A stretch of 64,000 nt of DNA from Candidatus Thorarchaeota archaeon (GCA_020348985.1 CP070761.1:1567465-1631464); one strand, 5' to 3'. Shown: positions 38,695 through 57,873, numbered from the stretch's first letter. Made by a program: numbers and translations. Notes: generated by a model from the letters alone, not told the origin.

Positions 38695-41600
38695 TCATGA
38701 GCTGTCCAGCAACTGGTCGACGATGTCCATCCTCATCTTGTATCCAGGTTTCCGCTTCTTCCTCCCGACCACAACAATGACTGCGACGAATCCTATACCT
38801 CCAAGCAGAAGCGCAAGCATGAAGTAGTCAGGCGGAGCAACGTCGATTGCGATTAGCTGGCCAGAAACTCCGAACAGCGAAAGGTGAGTGACTTGTGCCC
38901 ATATACAGCCTGCATAACTCTCACCATATATCTCAACATTTGTGGTGTTCTGACCGAGTGAGATTACCCAGTCCAGGTCCTCTGAGAGCTTGATCCATTG
39001 TTCATCTTCAGTATCGTAGTAGTAGATGCTCAATGAGGTTTCGTTTATGTCGCCCAAGTCACCTAGCTGTCCATCATTAGTAAGGTCAAGGTCAGAGACT
39101 CTGTAATAGATTTGAATCAGAGCAGACTCGAAGACATCTTGAGCTGTATCGTATAGAGTGATAGTCACATCCAGATACTTGTGCAAGGACACTTCACCCT
39201 CAACTAGACCCGTGGAATATACCAACTCGTGTGGTGTTGTGGATGCATCATACTTCACTATCTGAACACTTGGTCTAGCAAGTCCACTTAGTTGGACCAA
39301 GAGAGTAGCATCTAGTGTTTTTAGAGTGTCAATCTCGTTAATCAAGAAACTATAATGATACGTTTCATTATCAGTGATTACGGACTTTTGATAGTCCAAC
39401 GCTATCATATTGGGTAGTATCGTGAAGTTTCTACCTCTTAGGATTTGCAAAACTGAGTAGACATCCTCTGGGAATGCTTGAGAGAGCATTACTACTGTCT
39501 GGGGATTTGACCAAACACCATATCTCGTAGCTATCTCATGAGAATCGGGTTCCATCATATCGGTCAGAACACTGCCAGTATCACCTAGAAGATCGTAGAC
39601 CAATCCTCCTACTGTAGAACTCTCAGACTCCGGCCTGCCAATAAGGACAATGTATTGTGAGTCACTATAGAGCGAAGTTAGGTCACCAATTGAAACAATG
39701 GTTACGTCTGCATAATCTCTGAGTTTTTCTGCAAACAGGATTGTGTCATTGTAGTCCTCTGGGTCATGTGCGAGAATTATCGGACCCCTCCAGGGGCTAA
39801 ATGTGTCAGGATCCTCATTATCAGGAACACCATCGAAATCTGAATCAACATTCCATGGATTGCTGCCCCATTCCAACTCGACACCATCCAGAATACCATC
39901 CCCGTCTGTATCATTGTTCAATGCATCTAACCAATAGGCGACCTCAAGACTGTCTGATACGCCATCACTATCAGAATCACTGTTTAGGGGATTGGTGCCA
40001 ATGAACCATTCATAACTGTCACTTAGTCCATCACTATCGCTATCTCCCCCTAGAGGATTCGTACTCCTGCTGTATTCATCTCCATCCAGAGAAAGGTCAC
40101 CATCAGAATCTGCATGAAGTAGACTAGTGTTGTACTGGTACTCTAAAGCATCACTTGCGCCATCATAGTCGCTGTCAGCGCTGAGAGGATTTGAATTAAG
40201 CAGAAACTCCTCTAAGTCTGATAGAGTATCAAAATCTGAATCCGCCATTGCTGGGTTACTCCCAAAGGTCATTTCTAACCCATCACCCAGGCTGTCACCA
40301 TCTGAATCCCAGAGTGTCAAGCTAGATCCAGATGATGATTGCATGTAAGAAGCACTTAGTGTCGATGGTGCGAGGTGCGGACTAAACGTAGGCGGGATAT
40401 ATGTTTCACCGGGATTGTTTGCTTTCCACCATTCTTGGTGGTCAGAAACGCCATCCAAATCTGTATCTGAAGTGCTAGGATTGGACCCAAGTGAGAATTC
40501 AAGGAAATCATCCAGACCATCTAGGTCCGAGTCATTCATCAAATGGTTGCTGTGCACTCTGAAGGTTTCTTGTCCGTGAGTGAAGTTGACAGAGATAACC
40601 CAACCATCGATTTCCTGAATGTTTGTCAATCCATCGTTGTCCCAATCTGGATTCGTATCTAGTAGTAGTTCAGACGACAAAGTAACATTTTGCGAGAACT
40701 TCCAAATCCTTGAGGTTGATGGAGTACCAAGATCAATCCAATCCAAGACATAGATACTCTTGTCAGGAGCTACCGCCAACTGATGGGTCTCACTACCAAG
40801 AACATATGTTCCAGTTGTGAAATTCGTTATTCCATTTCCGTAGAACCGAAATGCAGTATCCTCAACTCCATTCGGATAGAATTTCTGGACACACATTCCA
40901 TCTGAGAGTTCACCTAGAACATACACGTAACCATCTGAGTCCACATCGACATCAAGAATTGAAACGTAGTTCTCAGACAGTGTGCCTAGGAATGCGCCAT
41001 CCGAGAGTCTCATCTTGATGACTCTATCCGGTTTACTATAGGAGAAATGCCTATCACATAGATAGACAATACCGTATTTCTCGTCTACTGCCATGCTTGT
41101 AATCCAATCAGTTTCATCATCTGCTGGACCTCTATTGCCATACGTCGCCAAAACAGAACCATCAGAGCCGTATTTTCGAAATCCACCTATCTGGTCATCC
41201 CCTGTATCTCTCACTGCTGCATAGATAACTCCATCATCACCAAAATCAAGATCCGTTATGTTCTTGTTGAGTATTGGACTCCAGCTCCCAGGATTCGTTA
41301 TTGTACCATTCAAGTTGAATCTGAAAATAGGACTGCTGAATAGCGGACTAACCTGAGTGTAAAGCCAGTCATTTGAGTCATCTACAGCCATTGCCACAAG
41401 TCGAGCGCCAGAAGGTAGAAAGGTCATGTTGTTGAAGACTGACTCTTGTGGAAGAGTAACCCGCGTGAGATTTGAATCATACTTCCGAATTGTGTTGTTA
41501 CCACTAACTGAGTCTAGTATTCCGTTTGCATATACATAGCCATACTCGTCCACACAAATGTCGCTTATCTTGTTGTTAGTTCCGTCCATTGTCCAGTCAA

Positions 41601-44600
41601 CGAACTTGCCCTCATAGTATACTCCTGATCCGTACCAAACATATGCTGAATCAAGAATCCCATCTCCATTGGTGTCATTTGATCTTGGGTTCGTATTACT
41701 TTCGTACTCTGTAAAGTCATCAAGACCATCTCCATCTGTTTCATTAAGGAGCGGATTCGAAGTCACATGAGTGGAGAAGGGAAGAGAAGTATTACCCATG
41801 TAATCGAAGCTTATAATCCAACCAGTGATTTCTAGATAGTCGCTTAACCCATCTTGATCTGTATCGATATTATTTGGATCTGTGCCACAGACTAGTTCGA
41901 ATTTGTCGTTCAACTTGTCATTGTCTGTATCGATACTTGCTGGATCAGTTCCAATTTCAATCTCATATTTATCATTGAGTCCATCTGAGTCGGTGTCGTA
42001 TCTCCATATGTTAGAGACTCCCATAGATGCTTCTCTGGTGTTGTTAAGTCCATCAACATCAAAGTCGTTCGCAATAAGACCCCATTTGAGAAACTCGTCA
42101 AAGGAAGCAGGAAACACATCAAAGTAGATTTGAGTCAGGAAAGGGGAATACGCCGAGGAATAACTAGGAAGAACTGAGATAGTTGGATCATAATGCCAAC
42201 AATCCCAAGTGTCGAGCCATTCGTGATACCAGACACTCCAAGTTTTGTAGAAGGAGTACAATCCGATTGTAACTGGGTAATTTGCCATAGCTATGGGTGC
42301 GCCAATGCTCTGAGTCTGAGACCACTCTTGTTGAATCCAAGCAGGATTACTTTGCGTAGCAGTCCCTAAATATGTCCAAATCGGATCCAGATCTGGCCAT
42401 GTCGGCATGTACGTCTGAATATTAGTTGTGTTGTGAGCAAAATTAAACGCCTGCCAATAGAAGTGATTTAGATCGCTAGTGGCAATCCAAAAATGAGGCA
42501 TGCACCAACTATCCAGAAAATACGTGTTGAGATATGTGCCATATGCACTTATTCGTCCTAGTAGTCTACATGTTAAGAGAATTCCGTCACCAGCCGTCAG
42601 ACCATTGTTCTCGAAATCCATGAAGGTTGGATCTATGTCCAGAATTCTGCTAGACGGCCACATCGCAACAATTTGGTGAGGGCGTCCATAAATAGCGTTG
42701 ATGAAGAACTCCTTGATTGCATCACTCACACCGATATTGTCCTTTCCACACCATCCTAGGATCTCATCGATCAACATGAAAATTCCAGCCAAACCAAACG
42801 TGAAGAACGTAGCCCAGGTGGTCAACAATGGTGCGATGATAACATCCCAAAGAAAGGTAACAATACCCCATATTGCTCCATACTCTTGTCCGCCGGCTCC
42901 ACCGATAGCATCTGCGATTTCCCAAGCGGCCCAGATTGTTAATCCAAGAGCGATTGCAGCAACAACTATCTCAATAATAACATCGAATTTGCCAATCTTA
43001 CTCACCCAACCTGACGCTTTGCTCGCACCTTTTGCCACCTTCGCCATTTGATGTAGAGTTCTCACTCTATGGAATTTCCTACCAGCTTCTGTGAATGAAT
43101 CGAAAATGCGCTGCAAACCGCGGAAATAAGAAGGAACATCTGGCAGAAGCAAGAAGGACTCAATACCTAAATCCACCCATTGTCCAACATTTTGCGAGAC
43201 GAATTCCATGTCTGATATTCGATCTATTGGGAATCCTCGTGGGGTTCCGTCGACTACTGTCGCACTCCGTTCAGTAGAAAACCACATCAGCGTCATTGTG
43301 ACTATCCAATACGTGACTTCATCATCTAGACCCCAACTAACAATATGGTCAACGATTTCAGTTATAGAAAGTGCTTCATAGCTGGTCGTGTTATAGTAAT
43401 TCATCTTCAGTGTCTTCATGACGGATGGGGCAAGGCTTGTCAGATCTATACTACTGTGACCATCCGTTCCGAATGAAACACCTGACATGTCTACAACTCT
43501 TGAATGGTCCTCAATAATCACAGTAATAGGAAGAATCATGTCCTGAGATATTGAACTCAATGCAGAGGGTAACATATCACTACCCAGCGAAGATAACGCG
43601 TCGAATTGAGATTGGAATGTCCTTACATCGCTTTCAACGGTTATATTGTTGTCCATGAGAAGTGGTTGCAGGTCTGAAACTGTGTTTGAAGAGTTTTTCA
43701 TGTAATAATAGTCAAACAGCAATGAAGCTCCAATCGTCATGTCAGTATTTGTGCTATTATAGAAGATACCAATTTCTGAACTTGTGCTCTCTTCCAATTT
43801 AAGTCCAGTAAATTTGAACGGTTCAGTGTAGGTGACCAGTTCAATCAGATTAGGAATCGGCTCAAGAGACTCTATTTCAAAGATAGATAATAGCGCAATA
43901 TCAGGAGTTGAAACTAGATTGCCCCTTCCATCCATTGCAACGTAGTTCCCCAAATAATCGGTCAAATAGCATGCCGGCCACCAGGCAATCCTTTGGTTGA
44001 ACGTTTCTCTCTCGCCGATTGTAGAGCTGTTGAAAAAGAGTGTACCATTGTCTGAAACTGATAGATAATTCCCATTAATCAGTTTTAGAGCAACCTCACT
44101 TTCTGATAGATAACACAACTGAAGAGCACCTTGAATTCCCTCACTAGCTGTAACTGATGCAACACCTTCGTTACCGACACTAAGATACTTCCAATTCTGC
44201 CTGAACAAGAGAGCATTGGGGATGAAGTCTGTATAGCCATGAACGCTCCACACTAATTCGGTCTGGAATGTGACACTCGTTGAAGCTAGACCTGGGTAGT
44301 AAACAATACCACTGAATGCTACAACTTCGCCATTGTCAATTACTGGAGAAAGACGGAGCCGCATTCCAGAAGAGGTTGGGACGATTCCTTGCTCTTGTAG
44401 AGCATCCTCACTTGGGATTGTGTCAGTAATAATCTCAAGATAGGGGATGAGGATTATGTCGTCTTTGGAATTGTCCAAGTCCGTCATTGTACTCTCGTTG
44501 TCCCAGTCTGGCCAATCCCAGGTCTGGTATAGTAACCTGAGATGCAATGGGTCCTCGGGTACAATCTGGAACTCCGCATAGAGCGGCATTGAGTTCGTGT

Positions 44601-45192
44601 TTACTACAATTGAAAACTTATCATTCACCTCTGAATACGCAAACGGTGAAACATCAAATGCATCGTTAACACCGTCGCCATCATTGTCAAAGTCCCATCC
44701 ATTCTTAATTCCATCATTGTCAGAATCCACATGTACTCCATCTGGAACGCCGTCACAGTCTGTATCAACTTCAAATGAATCACAAAGGCCATCATCATTT
44801 GAATCGGGATTGCGGGGGTCCAAGTCATTGTATACCTCAAAATCGTCAGTTAGGAGATCAACATCCGTATCATTGCTTTGTGGATTAGTGCCTATGACAG
44901 CTTCAACAAGGTCAGGTAATGAATCTGCATCAGAATCGGTAAGATTAGCAGCCGGAGTGACCTCAAGCAATGATATTACAAGTTCTTTGAGAGAACCTGG
45001 CGTTCGAGGAGGATCACCTTCAGCGACCCTTCTTACAAGTTGATTTGGATTCGTGATTACAGGGGGAGAATCACGGGAATCCCGGACTGGAATGTATTGA
45101 TTGTCTGTGGCCCGCTTGATATCACATCCAACGAACAAAAATATGAAAATCAAGCATGCAATGGCGAGCTTTAATCTTCTCAGGTCTCTCAC
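38695..45192 (-). CDS. Giant multidomain surface protein A (Ca-binding DxDxDG repeats, fascin-like insert, hydrophobic helical region, NHL propeller, GPS-like motif, TM anchor)
   Basis: 2165-aa ORF; signal peptide ending FVGC; many D-x-D-x-D-G-L-x-D-x-x-E repeats; NHL-like DICVDEYGYVY/MAVDEKYGIVY; VTHLSLF then TM. Confidence 0.85.
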   Translation of the reverse strand: MRDLRRLKLAIACLIFIFLFVGCDIKRATDNQYIPVRDSRDSPPVITNPNQLVRRVAEGDPPRTPGSLKELVISLLEVTPAANLTDSDADSLPDLVEAVIGTNPQSNDTDVDLLTDDFEVYNDLDPRNPDSNDDGLCDSFEVDTDCDGVPDGVHVDSDNDGIKNGWDFDNDGDGVNDAFDVSPFAYSEVNDKFSIVVNTNSMPLYAEFQIVPEDPLHLRLLYQTWDWPDWDNESTMTDLDNSKDDIILIPYLEIITDTIPSEDALQEQGIVPTSSGMRLRLSPVIDNGEVVAFSGIVYYPGLASTSVTFQTELVWSVHGYTDFIPNALLFRQNWKYLSVGNEGVASVTASEGIQGALQLCYLSESEVALKLINGNYLSVSDNGTLFFNSSTIGERETFNQRIAWWPACYLTDYLGNYVAMDGRGNLVSTPDIALLSIFEIESLEPIPNLIELVTYTEPFKFTGLKLEESTSSEIGIFYNSTNTDMTIGASLLFDYYYMKNSSNTVSDLQPLLMDNNITVESDVRTFQSQFDALSSLGSDMLPSALSSISQDMILPITVIIEDHSRVVDMSGVSFGTDGHSSIDLTSLAPSVMKTLKMNYYNTTSYEALSITEIVDHIVSWGLDDEVTYWIVTMTLMWFSTERSATVVDGTPRGFPIDRISDMEFVSQNVGQWVDLGIESFLLLPDVPSYFRGLQRIFDSFTEAGRKFHRVRTLHQMAKVAKGASKASGWVSKIGKFDVIIEIVVAAIALGLTIWAAWEIADAIGGAGGQEYGAIWGIVTFLWDVIIAPLLTTWATFFTFGLAGIFMLIDEILGWCGKDNIGVSDAIKEFFINAIYGRPHQIVAMWPSSRILDIDPTFMDFENNGLTAGDGILLTCRLLGRISAYGTYLNTYFLDSWCMPHFWIATSDLNHFYWQAFNFAHNTTNIQTYMPTWPDLDPIWTYLGTATQSNPAWIQQEWSQTQSIGAPIAMANYPVTIGLYSFYKTWSVWYHEWLDTWDCWHYDPTISVLPSYSSAYSPFLTQIYFDVFPASFDEFLKWGLIANDFDVDGLNNTREASMGVSNIWRYDTDSDGLNDKYEIEIGTDPASIDTDNDKLNDKFELVCGTDPNNIDTDQDGLSDYLEITGWIISFDYMGNTSLPFSTHVTSNPLLNETDGDGLDDFTEYESNTNPRSNDTNGDGILDSAYVWYGSGVYYEGKFVDWTMDGTNNKISDICVDEYGYVYANGILDSVSGNNTIRKYDSNLTRVTLPQESVFNNMTFLPSGARLVAMAVDDSNDWLYTQVSPLFSSPIFRFNLNGTITNPGSWSPILNKNITDLDFGDDGVIYAAVRDTGDDQIGGFRKYGSDGSVLATYGNRGPADDETDWITSMAVDEKYGIVYLCDRHFSYSKPDRVIKMRLSDGAFLGTLSENYVSILDVDVDSDGYVYVLGELSDGMCVQKFYPNGVEDTAFRFYGNGITNFTTGTYVLGSETHQLAVAPDKSIYVLDWIDLGTPSTSRIWKFSQNVTLSSELLLDTNPDWDNDGLTNIQEIDGWVISVNFTHGQETFRVHSNHLMNDSDLDGLDDFLEFSLGSNPSTSDTDLDGVSDHQEWWKANNPGETYIPPTFSPHLAPSTLSASYMQSSSGSSLTLWDSDGDSLGDGLEMTFGSNPAMADSDFDTLSDLEEFLLNSNPLSADSDYDGASDALEYQYNTSLLHADSDGDLSLDGDEYSRSTNPLGGDSDSDGLSDSYEWFIGTNPLNSDSDSDGVSDSLEVAYWLDALNNDTDGDGILDGVELEWGSNPWNVDSDFDGVPDNEDPDTFSPWRGPIILAHDPEDYNDTILFAEKLRDYADVTIVSIGDLTSLYSDSQYIVLIGRPESESSTVGGLVYDLLGDTGSVLTDMMEPDSHEIATRYGVWSNPQTVVMLSQAFPEDVYSVLQILRGRNFTILPNMIALDYQKSVITDNETYHYSFLINEIDTLKTLDATLLVQLSGLARPSVQIVKYDASTTPHELVYSTGLVEGEVSLHKYLDVTITLYDTAQDVFESALIQIYYRVSDLDLTNDGQLGDLGDINETSLSIYYYDTEDEQWIKLSEDLDWVISLGQNTTNVEIYGESYAGCIWAQVTHLSLFGVSGQLIAIDVAPPDYFMLALLLGGIGFVAVIVVVGRKKRKPGYKMRMDIVDQLLDSS

Positions 45193-45292
45193 CTACTATT
45201 TTCCATGAGTGAAAAGGGAACCACGCGAACGAGATGCGAGTAGCACCGCATCTTAAATCATCTTCGAATTTTTCAGCCATGCAGTGATGAGG

Positions 45293-48200
45293 TCATGAGC
45301 TGTCGAGCAGTTGGTCGACGATGTCCATCTTGACCTTACGTCCAATCGTTCGACCCTTCCTTCTCCTTGCTACCGCAACCACCGCTGCTAGTCCTGCCGC
45401 TCCAAATAGCAGCACATACAAAAGGTAATTAGGCGGCTCCACTGGGATTCCGATTAGCTGTCCTGCAACTGCGAATAGCGAGAGATGCGTTACTCGCGCC
45501 CAGACGAATCCTGCATATCTTTCTCCATAGAGCTCCACGTTTGTCGTGTTCTGGCCAAGGTCGACGACCCAGTCCAAGTCCTCTGAGAGCTTGATCCATT
45601 CACCAGCTGATGTATCATAGTAATACAGGCAAAGTGAGGTCTCATTTATGTCTCCCATGTCACCCAATTGGCTATCACCAGTGAGGTCAATGTCGGACTC
45701 TCTGTAGTAGATTATGATCCATGCGGAATCGAACACGTTGAAAGCCGTATCATACAGAGTCAGACCAACATCCAAATACCTGCCTAGAGATACATCGTTT
45801 TCTGCCAGACCCGTTGCATGTGTCAGCTGATTCGGAGTTGTGGTCTCATTGTATCGGCTGATTGCTATTGCAGGTCGGGCTCGCCCGCTAAGTACGATGA
45901 TCACTGACGCATCCGTTGCCTTGACCGTGTCAATTTCGTTGACAAGGGCGGCGTATGCTACGGTCTGATTATCAACTACTGCGTAGGAGTTGAATTCTAT
46001 CATGGTTCGATCAGACAGGATCGATAAATTCCATCCTCTCAGTATGGTGAGAACTGGATACACATCTGTGGAAAAGGCAGAGGACATGATGACAACTGTC
46101 TGTGGATCGTTCCAGTAGCCATATCTTGTTGCCACCTCGTGGGAGTTGTTCTCCATCATATCATCAAGAACGCTACCCGTGTCATCAAGCATGTCGTACG
46201 TAAGCCGTTCGAGACCGTAGCTGCTCGGATCAGGCCGACCTACGAGCACAATGTACTGGTGATCTGTATAGCCGTCAAGAAACTCCTGGAGTGTGACTAC
46301 GGTTACGTCGACGTGCTCGCTCAATTCTTGCACAAACTCGAGCGTGTGGGTTGTCGGATCTTCACCATAGACCAGAATGACTTGGCCATCCCATGTAGTG
46401 AATGTGTCAGGGTCGATGCTATCGGGGATGCCATCCCAGTCCGTATCGTTGCTTAGTGGATTGCTACCGTATTGCAATTCAAGCCCGTCTGGAATTCCGT
46501 CGAAATCTGTATCGTTGTTCAGCGGGTCCAGGAACAATGAAAGCTCCACGTCGTCATCAGCGCCATCTCCATCTGAATCAGCCAACGTTGGATTCAATGA
46601 CAAGAATAATTCAAACCCGTCTAGAAGATTATCTCCGTCGCTATCACCTTCACTCACATTGCTTCCCACGTGGTACTCCGTACCATCAAGACCGAGATCG
46701 CCATCTGAGTCCGGGTCAAGAAGGCTCGAGTTGCCATCGAATTCCTGACCGTCCAGAGCTCCATCTCCATCAGAGTCGTTGCTTCTCGGATTAGAATTCA
46801 GCAAGAACTCGGTCATATCTGAAAGACCATCTGCGTCAGAGTCAGGATTGACAGGAGAACTGCCGTAAGTGAGCTCAATGCTATCGCTAAGCAAGTCTCC
46901 GTCTGTATCCCACATGGTCAGATTGGGTCCAGCCGGAGTCCATTGCATGTGGTTCGAATAGATTGAAGAAGAAACGACGAAGGCACTCTGAATCGGTGGA
47001 ACATAGATTTCGCCTGGATGTGTTGTCAGCCACCACTCTTCGAAATCGGACACACCATCTTCGTCAGTATCGGGAGAACGAGGATTAGATCCCAGTGTAA
47101 ACTCCAGAGTATCGTTGAGTCCGTCGCAATCAGTGTCTTTCACCATCGGATCACTTGTGACATTGAAGGTTGTTCTTGCGCTAGCGAAGTCAACCGTGAT
47201 TTCCCAACCGTCCGTCTCCTGAATGTTGGTTAATCCGTCATCATCCCAGTCTGGATCGTTTTCGGGTATCACTTCTGAAGAATACTGGAAATTCTGCGAG
47301 AATCTCCAAATCCTTGATGTCGAGGGGTCTCCGGCACTGAGAAACGCGATAACGTAAATACTCCCGTCGGGCGATGTGCATAACCTATTTGCACCAGTGA
47401 GAGTGTGCGTGCCATTTCCATTGAATCGGAAATCCACATCTTCGAAGCCGCCAGGGGCATATCTTCTGACATGAGATCCGAGAGTAGAATCGGAAGACAT
47501 CGCATACAGATATCCACTATCATCAACCTCCAAATCTTGCATGTAGACACTGTATCCAAACTCTAGGATATTGACGTGGGACCCATCAGACATGTCCAAT
47601 ACATGCAGCCTGAAACCCTTAGAATATGATATTTCCTGGTCAAACACGTAGATGAGTCCATGCATCTCGTCTACTGCAATACCCCAAGGACTATCAAACT
47701 CCTCTGTGCCCGGACCGACTACGCCCCAAGAATTCAGGAGGGCTCCGCTTGAGTTATACTTCTTGACAATCGGAGTACTATATCCCAAATGATAGATATC
47801 CCCATTCTGACCGATAACAAATTGCTCTCCGCTAGCGGTGGAGATTGGAGTCCAGGAATCAGGGTTGATTGCTGAACCGTCCAAGTTGAACCTGTAGAGT
47901 GCATTGGTTGTAGAATACGCCTTGTGAATGTACATCCAATCATTGCTATCGTCAATACCAATGTACACAGGCATTTCGGAATTTGACCAGCACGTCAAGT
48001 TGACAAGATATGAACCGGTCGGCTGTTCAATAATGTTAAAGGATGGGTCATACTTTCTTACTGTTCCATTGTCGTTGGGCAATCCAAGGAATCCTGATGC
48101 ATACAGATATCCGTCTTCATCAGTACAGACGTCATACACATACTGCTGATGATGAGCAGTATAGTCAGGCATTATCCAGTCGATTGAGCCTTCATAGGCC

Positions 48201-51200
48201 GCAGTTGCGCTCATTCTGTAAGCTGGCATGTCCGGATACCCATCGCCGTTAGTATCATTCGAGTTGGGGTTTGTGTTGCCAAGGTACTCTTGGAGATCGT
48301 CAATTCCATCCCCGTCTGAATCATTGTACTTGGGATCCGAAGTCACGCGTATTTGAAATGGCAATGTCACGTTGCCCAGATAGTCGAAATCTATGACCCA
48401 GCCGGATGTCTCTCTGAAATCATTTAGTCCATCTTCATCCGAATCTGCGGATGTCGCATTCGTGGAATACACGTGTTCATACCAATCACTGACTCCATCT
48501 CCATCAGAGTCCGCGAGAGTTGGATCCAATCCCTTGTCAATCTCATACTTATCGTTCAGTTGATCTCCATCAGTATCGTAGTCCCATTGTGACGTTCCAT
48601 AGGCAGCCTCCAGTGCGGCATCGAGACCGTCACCATCACTGTCGACAAGTGTCATGGGAGAGAAATCTAGAAAGCCATTAAGTGTCGTCGGGAAGACATC
48701 GAAGTAGAGCCAAGTGTTATGGGCATATCCAGTCCCGTTGATGAGTTCTTCAGATTCCTCTATAGGGGATGGGTCGCCTCCAAATAGCTTGCTCACATGA
48801 TACCAAAAGTTCCTGCGCTGCGTCACGAGCCAGATCTTGTAGAGTGAACATATCGAGACATCTACAGGGTAATTTGACATAGCCAGCGTAGGTCTGAGGG
48901 AGGCTGAAAGCTCGAATTCGCACGAAACCTCCCGCCACCAAGTCATGTCATAGGCAGGATCCTGAAACGCATTATAGATTGCAGAAGGTATCCAGTCCAA
49001 TTGGAGTGCATGAATCCATGAGGCTGTGTCAGGGCTCCAACCCCACCATGGACGCCATCTAGGTGGGCCAGTCATGATGATCAAAGGCTTACACCATGAA
49101 AGCGACAAATAGTGATCCTCATCTACTTCCCACAAGTCGTTCTTCCAATCCACCGCTCTCACTCTTCCTTCAACTTTGACAGAGAGATGTATCCAATCGC
49201 CAGCATTGAGACCATTGTTGTCAGAGAACGTAGGAGTCGGACCTTCCGTGATTACAGAATACGGGGCCATCTGCAAGGCCAATTGAGGTTGACCATAGAA
49301 TGCCAGCGTCGCATACTCTGCAAGTTTCTGTGTCCAGCCATATTTGATGTCGGTAATGATGAACACTATGAGAAGCGCCCATCCAAGTACGGGAACAAAG
49401 GCCATGGCAAACTCAATCACTCCTATCATGTACACGCCGATGAAAGTAGAGACAAGGGCGTACGTCAAACCGATGACCCTTCCTCTTTCTCCGCCTATAG
49501 CGTTGGCTATCGATACACCAGCCCAAATGGACATTCCAATATCAATAGCAATCTCCAACACTATCAAAGCCTTTCCAAAGTGCTTGAAGTACTTGAGGCT
49601 CTTCAGAGAGGCTTGAGCAGCCTTGACTGTCTTTGAGATCCTGTTTATCAGATTCGCTACCTTTCCCATTTGATTGAACCATTCAGCCTTCAACACGTAG
49701 CAAACTCGGGAGATTGACCAGCCGCTTCTTTTTGCCGCTAGGTAGTAATCACTCATGATGTTCTTCACTGAGAGAAACCTCAGACCTGCGATCTTCTTCC
49801 CGGCTAATATGGCGAGGTCAAAACCTCCAAGTCCAAGCTCAAGTACTAACTGAGCGGTATTGAGAGCCTCATCTGTAGGGGGAAAGACCAACTCCTCGGC
49901 GCCTATCTTAGTGATGGACGTGTAACCTGAGTCCCAGCCTATCATGAGCGCAATCAGGTTCTTCTTCGCTTCTTCTGGCCATGCCCAACCTAGAATCTCT
50001 ATTGTGACGCCCCATGGAGTAAGGCCGACATTTGTCGATGTGTTATACCAGTTCACATTCAGGACCTTGGTCGTAACAAGTGGTTCACTGGCCGTGTCTA
50101 GCGAGCACGAATCCAGCATGACATATGAGCCGCCGAGCACGTCATACAGATCAGCAGTCTTCGAATATCCCTCAATTGCAATAGATAGTGGAAGGTTCAT
50201 GTTCTCAGGGAGACCCGCCAGCGCGGACGGTATGATTACATTGCTGAGAGTCTCTATTGCCAAGTACCTGTCTCTCACTGTGGTTCTCAAACCTGTTACA
50301 TTGACATTGTAGTGGTCGAGAACTCCAGGAATGTCATCAACATTGATTGTAGAGTTGTACAAGAACTCAGAAGTCATGACCAACTGCGCAGCCGCTATTT
50401 CAGTGACATTTTCGCTAAAGAACACACCTGCGAGAGCACCACTACATTCCTCAACTGAGAGTCCAGTGAACATGAAGGGCTCTTTGTACGTAACCAGAGA
50501 GGACGGTGTCGTCGCGATTCTATCGTGCTTCGTGACGGAGAGATATTCTGAGGGGTGAGTTGCTAGAGCTCCTTCTGGGCTTACTGTCACATACTCTCCG
50601 TTGGGGGCAACTAGCCTTCTTGCACTCGCGTGCCATATAAAGGTCTCATCATCACCGATATCGATTGAATCGAACAAGAACGTGTTGGAGTCTTCATACG
50701 ACAGGTAGAGGCCATTTACGAATCTAATCGCGACTTGATCATGGGATCCAGCTTCGCCAATCTTGACCCACTCAAGTTTGGTTGCATCAGCTGCCGTGAC
50801 ATTGCCGACTGCAATCATGTTGTTGCCAATAGCAATGTAATCGTCACTGGTACCACCGGGAGGATGGAGGTTCAGTATTTGACACCTCGAATCGGACTGC
50901 CCTATGACCTCCCAATTCAATTCAGCATGAAGCGTGACGTCCAGGGGAGTTGTATTGAGGTACAAGAGCTGACCAGTGAATGCTACAATGCTGCCGAACT
51001 CGAGAACAGGGTACAATGGAACCTCCAAAACATCACCAACATGTCTGGCTCCAACTTCGTTCAGTGCTGTCTGATTCGGGAAGAATTCATCACCTATGAA
51101 TGAGAGTTCCAGAATAGGGTAGATCCGGATATCTTCTCGAGAGTAATCCAAATCTTGCATAAGACCTTCCGTGTCATATTCCCAATCCCAAGTCTGGAAG

Positions 51201-51826
51201 GTCAACTTGAGGTGGTCGGGGTTTCTCGGAATGACCTGAAAACGAATGTAAGTGGGGTCTCCAGTGGTTTGAATCGATATATCAAATCCGTCTCTGATCA
51301 CAGACTTGGCAAAAGGAGAAAGATCCGGTTGATCGTTTACTCCATCACCATCGTTATCGAAGTCCCATGCGTTTAGCACATTGTCGCCATCTAGGTCCAG
51401 AGAAGTGCAGTTGATCTCAATGTGGTCTGCAATACCATCATCATTTGAGTCGGGATTCAATGGATCTAGTCCGTTCAGTGCTTCGAAGTAGTCGAGAAGG
51501 GTATCAAAATCAGTATCATTGTTCCTGGGATCAGTTCCTATGACTGCCTCAACTGAATCGTACAACCCGTCCATGTCGAAATCGGTTTGGTTTGCTACAG
51601 GAGTCACATTCATGAGCTCAGTTACTAGGGTACTGAGGTTCACAGGGGTCCTAGGAGGTTCCTCACTCAGTGTCTTCTGTAGAAAGGGTTGACCCTCCAA
51701 CGGGGCAACTGCTCTTTCTGTATCCGGCTGACTCATCTCTGGATGGTCAACAGCATTCTTCACATCACAACCAATGAACAGGAAAATGAAAACCAGGGAA
51801 GCCAGAATATAGGACCGCTTCTTCAT
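45293..51826 (-). CDS. Giant multidomain surface protein B, tandem paralog of A
   Basis: Colinear with A; start refined to MKKRSY (AGGTGGAG RBS); FIGC; VTHLSLF; identical MDIVDQLLDSS end. Confidence 0.85.
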   Translation of the reverse strand: MKKRSYILASLVFIFLFIGCDVKNAVDHPEMSQPDTERAVAPLEGQPFLQKTLSEEPPRTPVNLSTLVTELMNVTPVANQTDFDMDGLYDSVEAVIGTDPRNNDTDFDTLLDYFEALNGLDPLNPDSNDDGIADHIEINCTSLDLDGDNVLNAWDFDNDGDGVNDQPDLSPFAKSVIRDGFDISIQTTGDPTYIRFQVIPRNPDHLKLTFQTWDWEYDTEGLMQDLDYSREDIRIYPILELSFIGDEFFPNQTALNEVGARHVGDVLEVPLYPVLEFGSIVAFTGQLLYLNTTPLDVTLHAELNWEVIGQSDSRCQILNLHPPGGTSDDYIAIGNNMIAVGNVTAADATKLEWVKIGEAGSHDQVAIRFVNGLYLSYEDSNTFLFDSIDIGDDETFIWHASARRLVAPNGEYVTVSPEGALATHPSEYLSVTKHDRIATTPSSLVTYKEPFMFTGLSVEECSGALAGVFFSENVTEIAAAQLVMTSEFLYNSTINVDDIPGVLDHYNVNVTGLRTTVRDRYLAIETLSNVIIPSALAGLPENMNLPLSIAIEGYSKTADLYDVLGGSYVMLDSCSLDTASEPLVTTKVLNVNWYNTSTNVGLTPWGVTIEILGWAWPEEAKKNLIALMIGWDSGYTSITKIGAEELVFPPTDEALNTAQLVLELGLGGFDLAILAGKKIAGLRFLSVKNIMSDYYLAAKRSGWSISRVCYVLKAEWFNQMGKVANLINRISKTVKAAQASLKSLKYFKHFGKALIVLEIAIDIGMSIWAGVSIANAIGGERGRVIGLTYALVSTFIGVYMIGVIEFAMAFVPVLGWALLIVFIITDIKYGWTQKLAEYATLAFYGQPQLALQMAPYSVITEGPTPTFSDNNGLNAGDWIHLSVKVEGRVRAVDWKNDLWEVDEDHYLSLSWCKPLIIMTGPPRWRPWWGWSPDTASWIHALQLDWIPSAIYNAFQDPAYDMTWWREVSCEFELSASLRPTLAMSNYPVDVSICSLYKIWLVTQRRNFWYHVSKLFGGDPSPIEESEELINGTGYAHNTWLYFDVFPTTLNGFLDFSPMTLVDSDGDGLDAALEAAYGTSQWDYDTDGDQLNDKYEIDKGLDPTLADSDGDGVSDWYEHVYSTNATSADSDEDGLNDFRETSGWVIDFDYLGNVTLPFQIRVTSDPKYNDSDGDGIDDLQEYLGNTNPNSNDTNGDGYPDMPAYRMSATAAYEGSIDWIMPDYTAHHQQYVYDVCTDEDGYLYASGFLGLPNDNGTVRKYDPSFNIIEQPTGSYLVNLTCWSNSEMPVYIGIDDSNDWMYIHKAYSTTNALYRFNLDGSAINPDSWTPISTASGEQFVIGQNGDIYHLGYSTPIVKKYNSSGALLNSWGVVGPGTEEFDSPWGIAVDEMHGLIYVFDQEISYSKGFRLHVLDMSDGSHVNILEFGYSVYMQDLEVDDSGYLYAMSSDSTLGSHVRRYAPGGFEDVDFRFNGNGTHTLTGANRLCTSPDGSIYVIAFLSAGDPSTSRIWRFSQNFQYSSEVIPENDPDWDDDGLTNIQETDGWEITVDFASARTTFNVTSDPMVKDTDCDGLNDTLEFTLGSNPRSPDTDEDGVSDFEEWWLTTHPGEIYVPPIQSAFVVSSSIYSNHMQWTPAGPNLTMWDTDGDLLSDSIELTYGSSPVNPDSDADGLSDMTEFLLNSNPRSNDSDGDGALDGQEFDGNSSLLDPDSDGDLGLDGTEYHVGSNVSEGDSDGDNLLDGFELFLSLNPTLADSDGDGADDDVELSLFLDPLNNDTDFDGIPDGLELQYGSNPLSNDTDWDGIPDSIDPDTFTTWDGQVILVYGEDPTTHTLEFVQELSEHVDVTVVTLQEFLDGYTDHQYIVLVGRPDPSSYGLERLTYDMLDDTGSVLDDMMENNSHEVATRYGYWNDPQTVVIMSSAFSTDVYPVLTILRGWNLSILSDRTMIEFNSYAVVDNQTVAYAALVNEIDTVKATDASVIIVLSGRARPAIAISRYNETTTPNQLTHATGLAENDVSLGRYLDVGLTLYDTAFNVFDSAWIIIYYRESDIDLTGDSQLGDMGDINETSLCLYYYDTSAGEWIKLSEDLDWVVDLGQNTTNVELYGERYAGFVWARVTHLSLFAVAGQLIGIPVEPPNYLLYVLLFGAAGLAAVVAVARRRKGRTIGRKVKMDIVDQLLDSS

Positions 51827-52104
51827 ATCGCTCCACCTTTGCCACGCCGCAGGGATAATGCATCCAAAGAGCTCCGCCTCAATTGGCAAAGGGCCTTTTA
51901 TCTTCTCTGAGGGAAACTAACCCGATTGCAATTCGCAAGCAGACGGTCCAAATGCATTGCAACCTGAAACTTCCATCGCTTGTGACGCAGGTATTCCAGA
52001 ACCTATCAGAAGTCCGGCAGCTCGACTGCGTTGAGCATCATCCTGAAAAGAAGAACCGCTAGTCAACGGTTTCCACCATCTGGTCTTCGGGAGATGAAGG
52101 ACAC

Positions 52105-57288: not shown

Positions 57289-57873
57289 ATGCCGAAGCCG
57301 AAACCTAAGACAAAGATTGAGAACGTAGTTGCGTCGGTTATCCTTAACCAGCGCTTAGACCTCGATGAGATTGCGGCTACAATGCCAAACGTCGAATTCG
57401 ACCCTGAGCAGTTCCCCGGACTTGTCTACCGTCTGAAGAAACCCAAGACAGCGACACTGATTTTTAACAGCGGTAAGATGGTGTGCACTGGGGCCAAGAG
57501 CGAGAAGGAAGCCAAGCGTGCTGTCCACAAGATTGTGAAGAACATCAAAGAGGCGGGCATCGAGATTACTGGCCGTCCTATCATTGTTGTTCAGAACATA
57601 GTTGCTAGCGCAAGCCTCGGGGCAGAGCTCAACCTCGAGTTGGCCGCAATGAAGCTCGAGAACACACTCTACGAGCCAGAGCAGTTCCCCGGTCTGATCT
57701 ACAGAATGAGAGACCCCAAGGTCGTCATTCTCCTGTTCGGTTCTGGTAAGCTTGTCATCACAGGAGCCAAGTTTGAGCCGCAGATTGACGAGGCCGCACT
57801 CAAAGTCATGGACCGTCTTCTAGAACTCGGAGTCATGAGAATTCCAGAGGGCGAAGACTGGTCAGATGACTAA
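57289..57873 (+). CDS. tbp: TATA-box-binding protein
   Basis: Two repeats IENVVAS...FDPEQFPGLVYR...LIFNSGKMVCTGAK and VQNIVAS...YEPEQFPGLIYR...LLFGSGKLVITGAK; acidic tail. Confidence 0.98.
   Translation: MPKPKPKTKIENVVASVILNQRLDLDEIAATMPNVEFDPEQFPGLVYRLKKPKTATLIFNSGKMVCTGAKSEKEAKRAVHKIVKNIKEAGIEITGRPIIVVQNIVASASLGAELNLELAAMKLENTLYEPEQFPGLIYRMRDPKVVILLFGSGKLVITGAKFEPQIDEAALKVMDRLLELGVMRIPEGEDWSDD

Follow-up and report, generated by a model that had tools for sequence, protein, structure and literature searches.

Giant surface proteins of a Thorarchaeota archaeon end in a GAIN-like domain with a predicted self-cleavage site

In a 64,000-nucleotide stretch of the genome of Candidatus Thorarchaeota archaeon (GCA_020348985.1, CP070761.1:1567465-1631464; the window hereafter), two genes, here called A and B, encode giant surface proteins whose last extracellular domain is likely a MAIN-type (Microbial Autoproteolysis INducing) domain of the GAIN-B/ZU5 fold that would cut itself between the Leu and Ser of a His-Leu-Ser motif. 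We base this on a structural model and on analogy with characterised GAIN and MAIN domains. Direct support comes from the fold, from the position and register of the motif, from its conservation, and from the order of signal peptide, ectodomain, domain and anchor. An earlier note on this DNA had pointed to a GAIN-like autoproteolysis motif, HLSLF, just before the membrane anchor of both proteins. A script placed the motif exactly there on the minus strand (A, aa 2103-2107, 38872-38886; B, aa 2135-2139, 45473-45487), translation gave the contexts quoted for it, CIWAQVTHLSLFGVSG in A and FVWARVTHLSLFAVAG in B, and the string INETSL..YYYD..W.KL is present upstream of it in both proteins. Its closeness to the transmembrane (TM) helix was likewise recovered, as by hydropathy the hydrophobic segment starts 16-17 residues past the Phe of HLSLF in A and B.

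Gene A: 38695..45192, minus strand, giant surface protein of 2165 aa (open reading frame (ORF) list and translation)
Gene B: 45293..51889, minus strand, paralogue of A, longest ORF 2198 aa (ORF list and translation)
MAIN-type beta-sandwich domain of A: 38848..39429, minus strand, aa 1922-2115 (AlphaFold2 model, Foldseek, VIA-align, 215 homologue clusters)
MAIN-type domain of B: 45449..46030, minus strand, aa 1954-2147 (60% identity to the A domain; profile match in the own genome, E 2.3e-87)
His2103-Leu2104-Ser2105 of A: 38878..38886, minus strand, predicted scissile bond Leu2104-Ser2105, in the turn between the last two strands
His2135-Leu2136-Ser2137 of B: 45479..45487, minus strand, predicted scissile bond Leu2136-Ser2137 (aligned with A)

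A GAIN-like sandwich with the motif in register

The fold comparison that the earlier note had suggested, carried out on the last ~190 extracellular residues, yielded a confident beta-sandwich with GAIN-B, ZU5 and FIIND domains as its best PDB matches. The AlphaFold2 model of the A domain was built from a 42-row alignment and reached a predicted local distance difference test (pLDDT) score of 93.6 and a predicted template modelling (pTM) score of 0.88. T-H-L-S occupies model residues 181-184 (HLS, 182-184) and forms a kinked turn between the last two strands, assigned by DSSP to residues 174-180 and 185-192. A second model, covering A aa 1795-2165 and built from a separate 30-row alignment (pLDDT 86), reproduced the sandwich, with an alpha/beta domain of five strands ahead of it (residues 10-126 of this extended model) and the TM helix nine residues behind it.

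Foldseek against PDB placed the GAIN domain of BAI3 at the top (E 2e-4, and 5.5e-6 with the longer model), followed by the FIIND of NLRP1, the GAIN domains of CD97, BAI2, CELSR1 and latrophilin, and the ZU5 of ankyrin. With VIA-align, BAI3 reached Z 9.9 (root-mean-square deviation 3.6 A, 147 residues aligned), CD97 9.2, ankyrin ZU5 9.2, BAI2 8.7, CELSR1 8.6, NLRP1 8.5, CARD8 7.7, GPR110 7.5, latrophilin-1 7.5 and UNC5b 7.0. The GAIN and ZU5 domains are matched in score by some axonemal chains of unknown relation, and unrelated sandwiches (GH98, dextranase C-domains) are found at Z 5-7. The nearest named cluster in an ESM-Atlas look-up was ZU5, at a weak score of 0.80.

Five GAIN or FIIND chain alignments all terminate at model residue 183, the Leu of HLS. 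Its partners are residue 837 of latrophilin-1 (4dlq_A), 566 of GPR110 (8hc0_A), 854 of ADGRL3 (8vti_A) and 249 of GPR97 (7qu8_A); the fifth chain is the NLRP1 FIIND (7crv_A). The published P1 residue of latrophilin-1 (CL1) is L837, and H836, L837 and T838 are all needed (Arac et al. 2012, PMC3321182; PDB 4DLQ, 4DLO). In BAI3, the equivalent Leu is L856, Arg replaces His (R-L-S), and the domain was crystallised uncleaved (PMC3321182); model residues 1-193 aligned to BAI3 694-866, and L856 falls on residue 183 by offset. HLS is in register with H836-L837-T838 of latrophilin-1, which is cut after L837, and with L856-S857 of BAI3, and this alignment of residue 183 puts H2103-L2104-S2105 of A at the GAIN catalytic positions.

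Conservation of His and Ser across homologues

When 1.84 billion cluster representatives were searched exhaustively with phmmer, A aa 1922-2115 as query gave 215 proteins at E <= 1e-3 and 139 at E <= 1e-10, many of them 2,000-2,500 residues long with the domain near the C-terminus. Conservation was counted in the 144 homologue clusters that cover the motif and average about 35-45% identity to A. Their consensus is W-A-x-V-[ST]-H-[LF]-S-L-[FY]-G-[LI]-A-G, with His in 111/144 (77%), Ser in 123/144 (85%, plus 5 Cys and 2 Thr) and H[LF]S in 102/144 (71%). The earlier note had expected the two residues to be conserved among homologues, and in most clusters they are. In a domain-only alignment of 25 rows (the named-genome loci together with A and B), no row lacks Ser and 20 keep His. 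A and B are 41% identical overall and 60% identical in the GAIN-like domain; because they are paralogues, their agreement in HLSLF counts as one observation and not as independent evidence, and it is the conservation across the 144 clusters that lifts the motif beyond chance.

In another Thorarchaeota metagenome-assembled genome (MAG), OWC3, contig PRDI01000025.1 carries two copies of the domain ~7 kb apart (L002, 15314-21919; L005, 22395-28985), as would be expected if the pair of giant genes lay in tandem there too. TRLSLF, with Arg for His as in uncleaved BAI3, is the reading in both, which makes them candidate natural non-cleaving domains.

Relation to MAIN, GAIN and ZU5 domains

With the latrophilin GAIN structure as query, Brogan and Rudner (bioRxiv 10.64898/2026.05.12.724683, May 2026) described GAIN-B-like MAIN domains in bacteria and archaea. 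Bacillus subtilis YfkN is cut between the Phe and Ser of a conserved HFS, as established by Edman degradation with S1346A/T controls; cleavage at HFS occurs in vitro and in vivo, is abolished by Ser-to-Ala, and was also found for proteins of several other species. The fragments remain associated, and release of the ectodomain is possible. These proteins usually run from a signal peptide through a large adhesion or enzyme ectodomain and the MAIN domain to a surface anchor. Earlier, Zhang et al. (2012, PMC3482391) had united the ZU5, GPS and Nup98 domains and proposed that ZU5 self-processing is general in large bacterial surface proteins. The idea of a self-cleaving prokaryotic GAIN-like domain is therefore not new, and with the concept published in 2026 and predicted in 2012 our analysis opens no new question.

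The domains of A and B share with those of MAIN proteins (YfkN and the Streptococcus agalactiae and Acetivibrio thermocellus proteins) the GAIN-B-like beta-sandwich, the conserved H-x-S in the turn that leads into the last strand, and the placement just before the surface anchor, where a very large secreted ectodomain with adhesion-type repeats terminates. Occurrence in archaea, including Methanolobus, is also common to both: the portion of Table S3 of Brogan and Rudner available to us holds 13 mentions of Methanolobus, Bathyarchaeota and Methanomassiliicoccus, in one case with the domain followed by a TM helix. They differ in that the motif of the A/B subfamily is mostly HLS, whereas that of MAIN is HFS; in that the anchor of A and B is a single-pass TM helix and not the sortase or SLH anchor usual for MAIN; in the co-conserved alpha/beta domain that precedes the A/B domain; and in that cleavage of A and B is only predicted. 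The hosts of A and B are Asgard archaea, and the available portions of the text and tables contain no Thor-, Loki- or Asgard entry, nor do those of the supplementary tables contain the Methanolobus homologue WP_094227401.1. Judging from the models, the A and B domains are most likely archaeal members of MAIN that form a separate, unannotated subfamily of HLS type with predicted cleavage.

Within the M. psychrotolerans genome, the subfamily profile matched only WP_094227401.1 ('RICIN domain-containing protein'), with no second match even at E 10, and the available part of the Brogan and Rudner table gives four other MAIN proteins for this species. HMMER thus does not connect the A/B subfamily to the other MAIN-type domains of M. 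psychrotolerans. One candidate among these is WP_164997834.1, an S8-protease surface protein of 1,440/1,453 aa (L027:2027-6385, minus strand) that carries ANITHLSIYVPL; its domain order matches the entry WP_094228140 in the part of Table S3 available, but the accession differs. In hhalign comparisons of the subfamily profile with the THLSIY domain of this protein, P was 8e-4 with 25 rows (probability 24%) and 1.7e-4 with 151 rows (probability 50%), and the motifs 'L.l.YyD...g.W' and 'V.A.vtHLS.y' were in register; at these low probabilities, the profile alignment is suggestive of homology but no more than that.

Besides its internal THLSIY domain, WP_164997834.1, annotated as 'PGF-pre-PGF domain-containing', has a C-terminal strand TPGFSVFAI before its TM helix. 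If this protein is the Table S3 entry, whose last element is labelled 'GPS' in the part available, PGF-pre-PGF domains may be His-less relatives of the same strand. For A and B themselves, a PGF-pre-PGF-type domain (NCBIfam TIGR04213 type) was ruled out, as there was no NCBIfam match at E up to 10 in the last 365 residues of either protein and no PGF tripeptide before the TM helix.

Like the GAIN domains of adhesion G-protein-coupled receptors (GPCRs) and polycystin-1, those of A and B have the subdomain-B fold, H-L-S/T between the last two strands, and a hydrophobic last strand adjoining the membrane, which in B (SLFAVAG) is similar to the sequence with which the latrophilin tethered agonist begins (TNFAVLM). 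Unlike them, they are without the helical GAIN-A subdomain, in whose place the extended model has the alpha/beta domain, and without the Cys/Trp pattern or disulfides of GPS: Pfam GPS (PF01825) gave no match at E up to 10, and the alignments contain no conserved Cys near the site, the single Cys there in A being Tyr or Phe in homologues. GAIN proteins have 7 or 11 TM helices, whereas A and B have one, with a tail of ~20 residues, and so offer no obvious receptor for a tethered agonist. The ZU5 and FIIND domains of PIDD, UNC5, NLRP1 and CARD8 share the fold and an H-F/L-S type site, but in animals they are cytoplasmic whereas the A/B domain is extracellular, and Pfam ZU5 (PF00791) does not match it. 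For the prokaryotic ZU5 'releasing peptidases' of Zhang et al., self-processing of large surface proteins had already been proposed; in their toxin examples ZU5 lies near the N-terminus of RHS proteins, whereas the A/B domain is C-terminal.

The earlier note had called the system a 'prokaryotic analogue or antecedent' of receptor shedding. An analogue of this kind had already been published as MAIN and foreshadowed in 2012. As an antecedent it finds no support: even close relatives carry the subfamily only sporadically, and its domain is without both GAIN-A and the cysteines of GPS. Such patchiness speaks against a direct line from here to the GAIN domains of eukaryotes. If the domain does cleave, the MAIN/GAIN principle of self-cleavage would reach Asgard archaea and apply to a large unannotated family of archaeal surface proteins (~2,000 residues; 215 clusters at 50% identity, in none of which a Pfam model covers the domain), for which it would be a mechanism for holding and releasing a huge ectodomain of calcium repeats and propeller. 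The HLS-type subfamily could seed an annotation profile.

Proposed self-cleavage and competing explanations

By analogy with GAIN and the tested MAIN domains, we propose that after export and folding His2103 (His2135 in B) would deprotonate Ser2105 (Ser2137), which would attack the carbonyl of Leu2104 (Leu2136); an N-to-O acyl shift and hydrolysis would then cut the chain in cis at the Leu-Ser bond. The products would be an N-terminal part of ~2,080 residues, comprising the whole ectodomain, and a C-terminal part of 61 residues with the last strand (SLFGVSGQLI), a short linker, the TM helix and the ~20-residue tail. The same analogy suggests that the fragments would stay joined non-covalently because the last strand remains hydrogen-bonded within the sandwich, and that a pulling force or unfolding would detach the ectodomain from the membrane stub.

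A number of observations weigh against self-cleavage. Scanned at E up to 10, the last 194-366 residues gave no match to the Pfam and NCBIfam models (GPS, ZU5 and PGF-pre-PGF), and a search of the PDB sequences with the subfamily profile returned only chance tubulin matches (E ~0.8), so that the link to GAIN and ZU5 rests on the predicted structure and the one weak profile alignment described above. BAI3, with its R-L-S, was crystallised uncleaved. The ZU5 of ankyrin, which shares the fold, is not known to be autoproteolytic. Among the 34 clusters in which a TM helix directly follows the domain, both His and Ser are present in 20 and both are lost in 8, and TELSLF, TRLSLF, NELHLF and AKLPLF are among the readings in the sequences closest to A and B. 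On these sequences, the His/Ser dyad is dispensable in this subfamily.

Such losses are what would be expected of a non-cleaving ZU5-like stalk, in which the sandwich is a spacer and T-H-L-S-L-F is kept for a tight turn and the folding of a buried strand. The whole domain and its hydrophobic pattern are retained in close relatives where His is replaced by E, R or K, or Ser by H or P; the columns Y109, E130, W145 and G174 are more conserved than either motif residue; and ankyrin ZU5 matches the model about as well as GAIN does. We nevertheless consider a mere stalk unlikely, if a serious contender, as it does not account for a polar His and Ser two apart in an exposed turn, kept together in 71% of clusters at 30-45% overall identity and exactly at the GAIN catalytic positions. 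Moreover, all tested bacterial MAIN domains with an intact motif cleaved (Brogan and Rudner), and loss of the motif in a minority is also known among adhesion GPCRs, with the Arg of BAI3 as an example (Arac et al.). Alternatively, the site could be cut by another enzyme, such as a sheddase, or a protease of the archaeosortase-like or rhomboid type recognising the stretch next to the membrane. Processing close to the C-terminal anchor is common in archaeal surface proteins, and the short distance from motif to membrane would suit such an enzyme. This we judge very improbable, since models of PGF-CTERM or other sorting signals gave no match at the C-terminus and no linked protease or regulator gene was found among the neighbouring genes. 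In addition, other domains and not the anchor follow the motif in 105/144 clusters (86 of which keep both residues), so the motif is not a membrane-proximal sorting signal. HLS-type tripeptides are common, with others at A aa 1382 and B aa 901, and a five-residue string in two paralogues might bear no relation to GAIN or ZU5; a chance resemblance of this kind is effectively refuted by the fold match, the register and the conservation over 144 clusters.

Two further features weigh against the release that self-cleavage at Leu-Ser would permit. A lipobox-like Cys follows the core of the signal peptide (LFVGC in A, 45115-45129; LFIGC in B, 51763-51777; minus strand); it was seen in only 5 of the 65 long sequences examined, among them A, B and the database copy of B, and is not conserved. 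In mid-protein, three hydrophobic Gly/Ala-rich segments (A aa 738-812, 42757-42981; B aa 774-845, 49355-49570; minus strand), with no Pfam match at E 0.1, are embedded in an otherwise acidic ectodomain; given the topology of the C-terminal anchor, membrane crossings there must be even in number or zero. Release may thus be incomplete, with a lipidated Cys or the mid-protein segments holding the ectodomain at the membrane after the cut.

It is conceivable, if distinctly improbable, that loss of the ectodomain exposes the hydrophobic strand of the stub and alters the acidic tail, through oligomerisation of the stub or intramembrane proteolysis, and so acts as a minimal force-sensing transmembrane signal, which would place a possible forerunner of GAIN- or Notch-type signalling in the archaea most closely related to eukaryotes.

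Layout of genes A and B

The order in A is signal peptide, TSP3-type calcium repeats, beta-propeller region, alpha/beta domain, MAIN-type domain, TM anchor and short tail. Pfam on the whole of A and B matched only TSP3_bac (bacterial TSP3 calcium repeats). The architectural features seen are the N-terminal hydrophobic signal, the TSP3 repeats and the C-terminal TM helix with its positive-inside flank; the basic residues after the helix place the tail inside the cell and HLSLF outside. The remaining features are as follows.

Alpha/beta (Rossmann-like) domain, ~120 residues: A 39430..39792, aa 1801-1921, and B 46031-46393, minus strand (alignments and extended model)
C-terminal TM helix of A: 38758..38826, minus strand, about aa 2123-2145, then RKKRK (hydropathy, aa 2124-2142, and helix 329-351 of the extended model)
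C-terminal TM segment of B: 45368..45424, minus strand, aa 2156-2174, then RRRKGR (hydropathy)
Cytoplasmic tail of A: 38698..38757, minus strand, ending in MDIVDQLLDSS (38698-38730), with the identical ending of B at 45296-45328 (translations)

In this subfamily, the alpha/beta domain always lies directly N-terminal of the MAIN-type domain and is co-conserved in homologues according to the alignments. The longest ORF of B begins at a TTG, 21 codons 5' of MKKRSY (51826-51889 stretch). The database copy of B (P0003) has the same C-terminus, starts at MKKRSY, which is M22 at 51826, and is 2177 aa long. The true start of B is probably M22 at 51826, which fits a signal peptide better.

Acidic-hydrophobic tails similar to those of A and B occur in ~8 of the 34 TM-proximal clusters (MGLFDELLESS, YDSLLNELID, TYTDIVHELSE, QIDLLSSL), and the MDIVDQLLDSS-type tail may be a cytoplasmic interaction motif. 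N-x-S/T sequons are enriched in both proteins (30 against ~20 expected in A, 35 against ~17 in B), one of them in the INETSL strand; by sequence this is consistent with glycosylated archaeal surface proteins.

Distribution and genomic context

We scanned the GTDB species genomes with a pattern from a 12-row alignment and found positives among Thorarchaeota MAGs (best 54% identity), Hermodarchaeota, Helarchaeota, Methanolobus and one Hadarchaeota MAG. A profile search of a large protein collection added an ANME-2 archaeon; all its matches are archaeal, with no bacterial MAIN proteins among them. By profile search, the domain occurs only twice in the own genome (3.16 Mb, one contig). It was present in one of 24 searched genomes of the same family and in neither of two of the same genus. 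Genes of the A/B type are accessory and patchily distributed.

Among the neighbours of A and B are genes for an M32 carboxypeptidase, an MFS transporter, TBP, a solute-binding protein and aminotransferase-type proteins. The TBP gene (57289-57873 in the window) encodes two repeats, and the same genome has a eukaryote-type actin gene (G000:C1:1023450-1024553; 439 bits to Pfam Actin). Together, the actin and TBP genes support an Asgard archaeal host.

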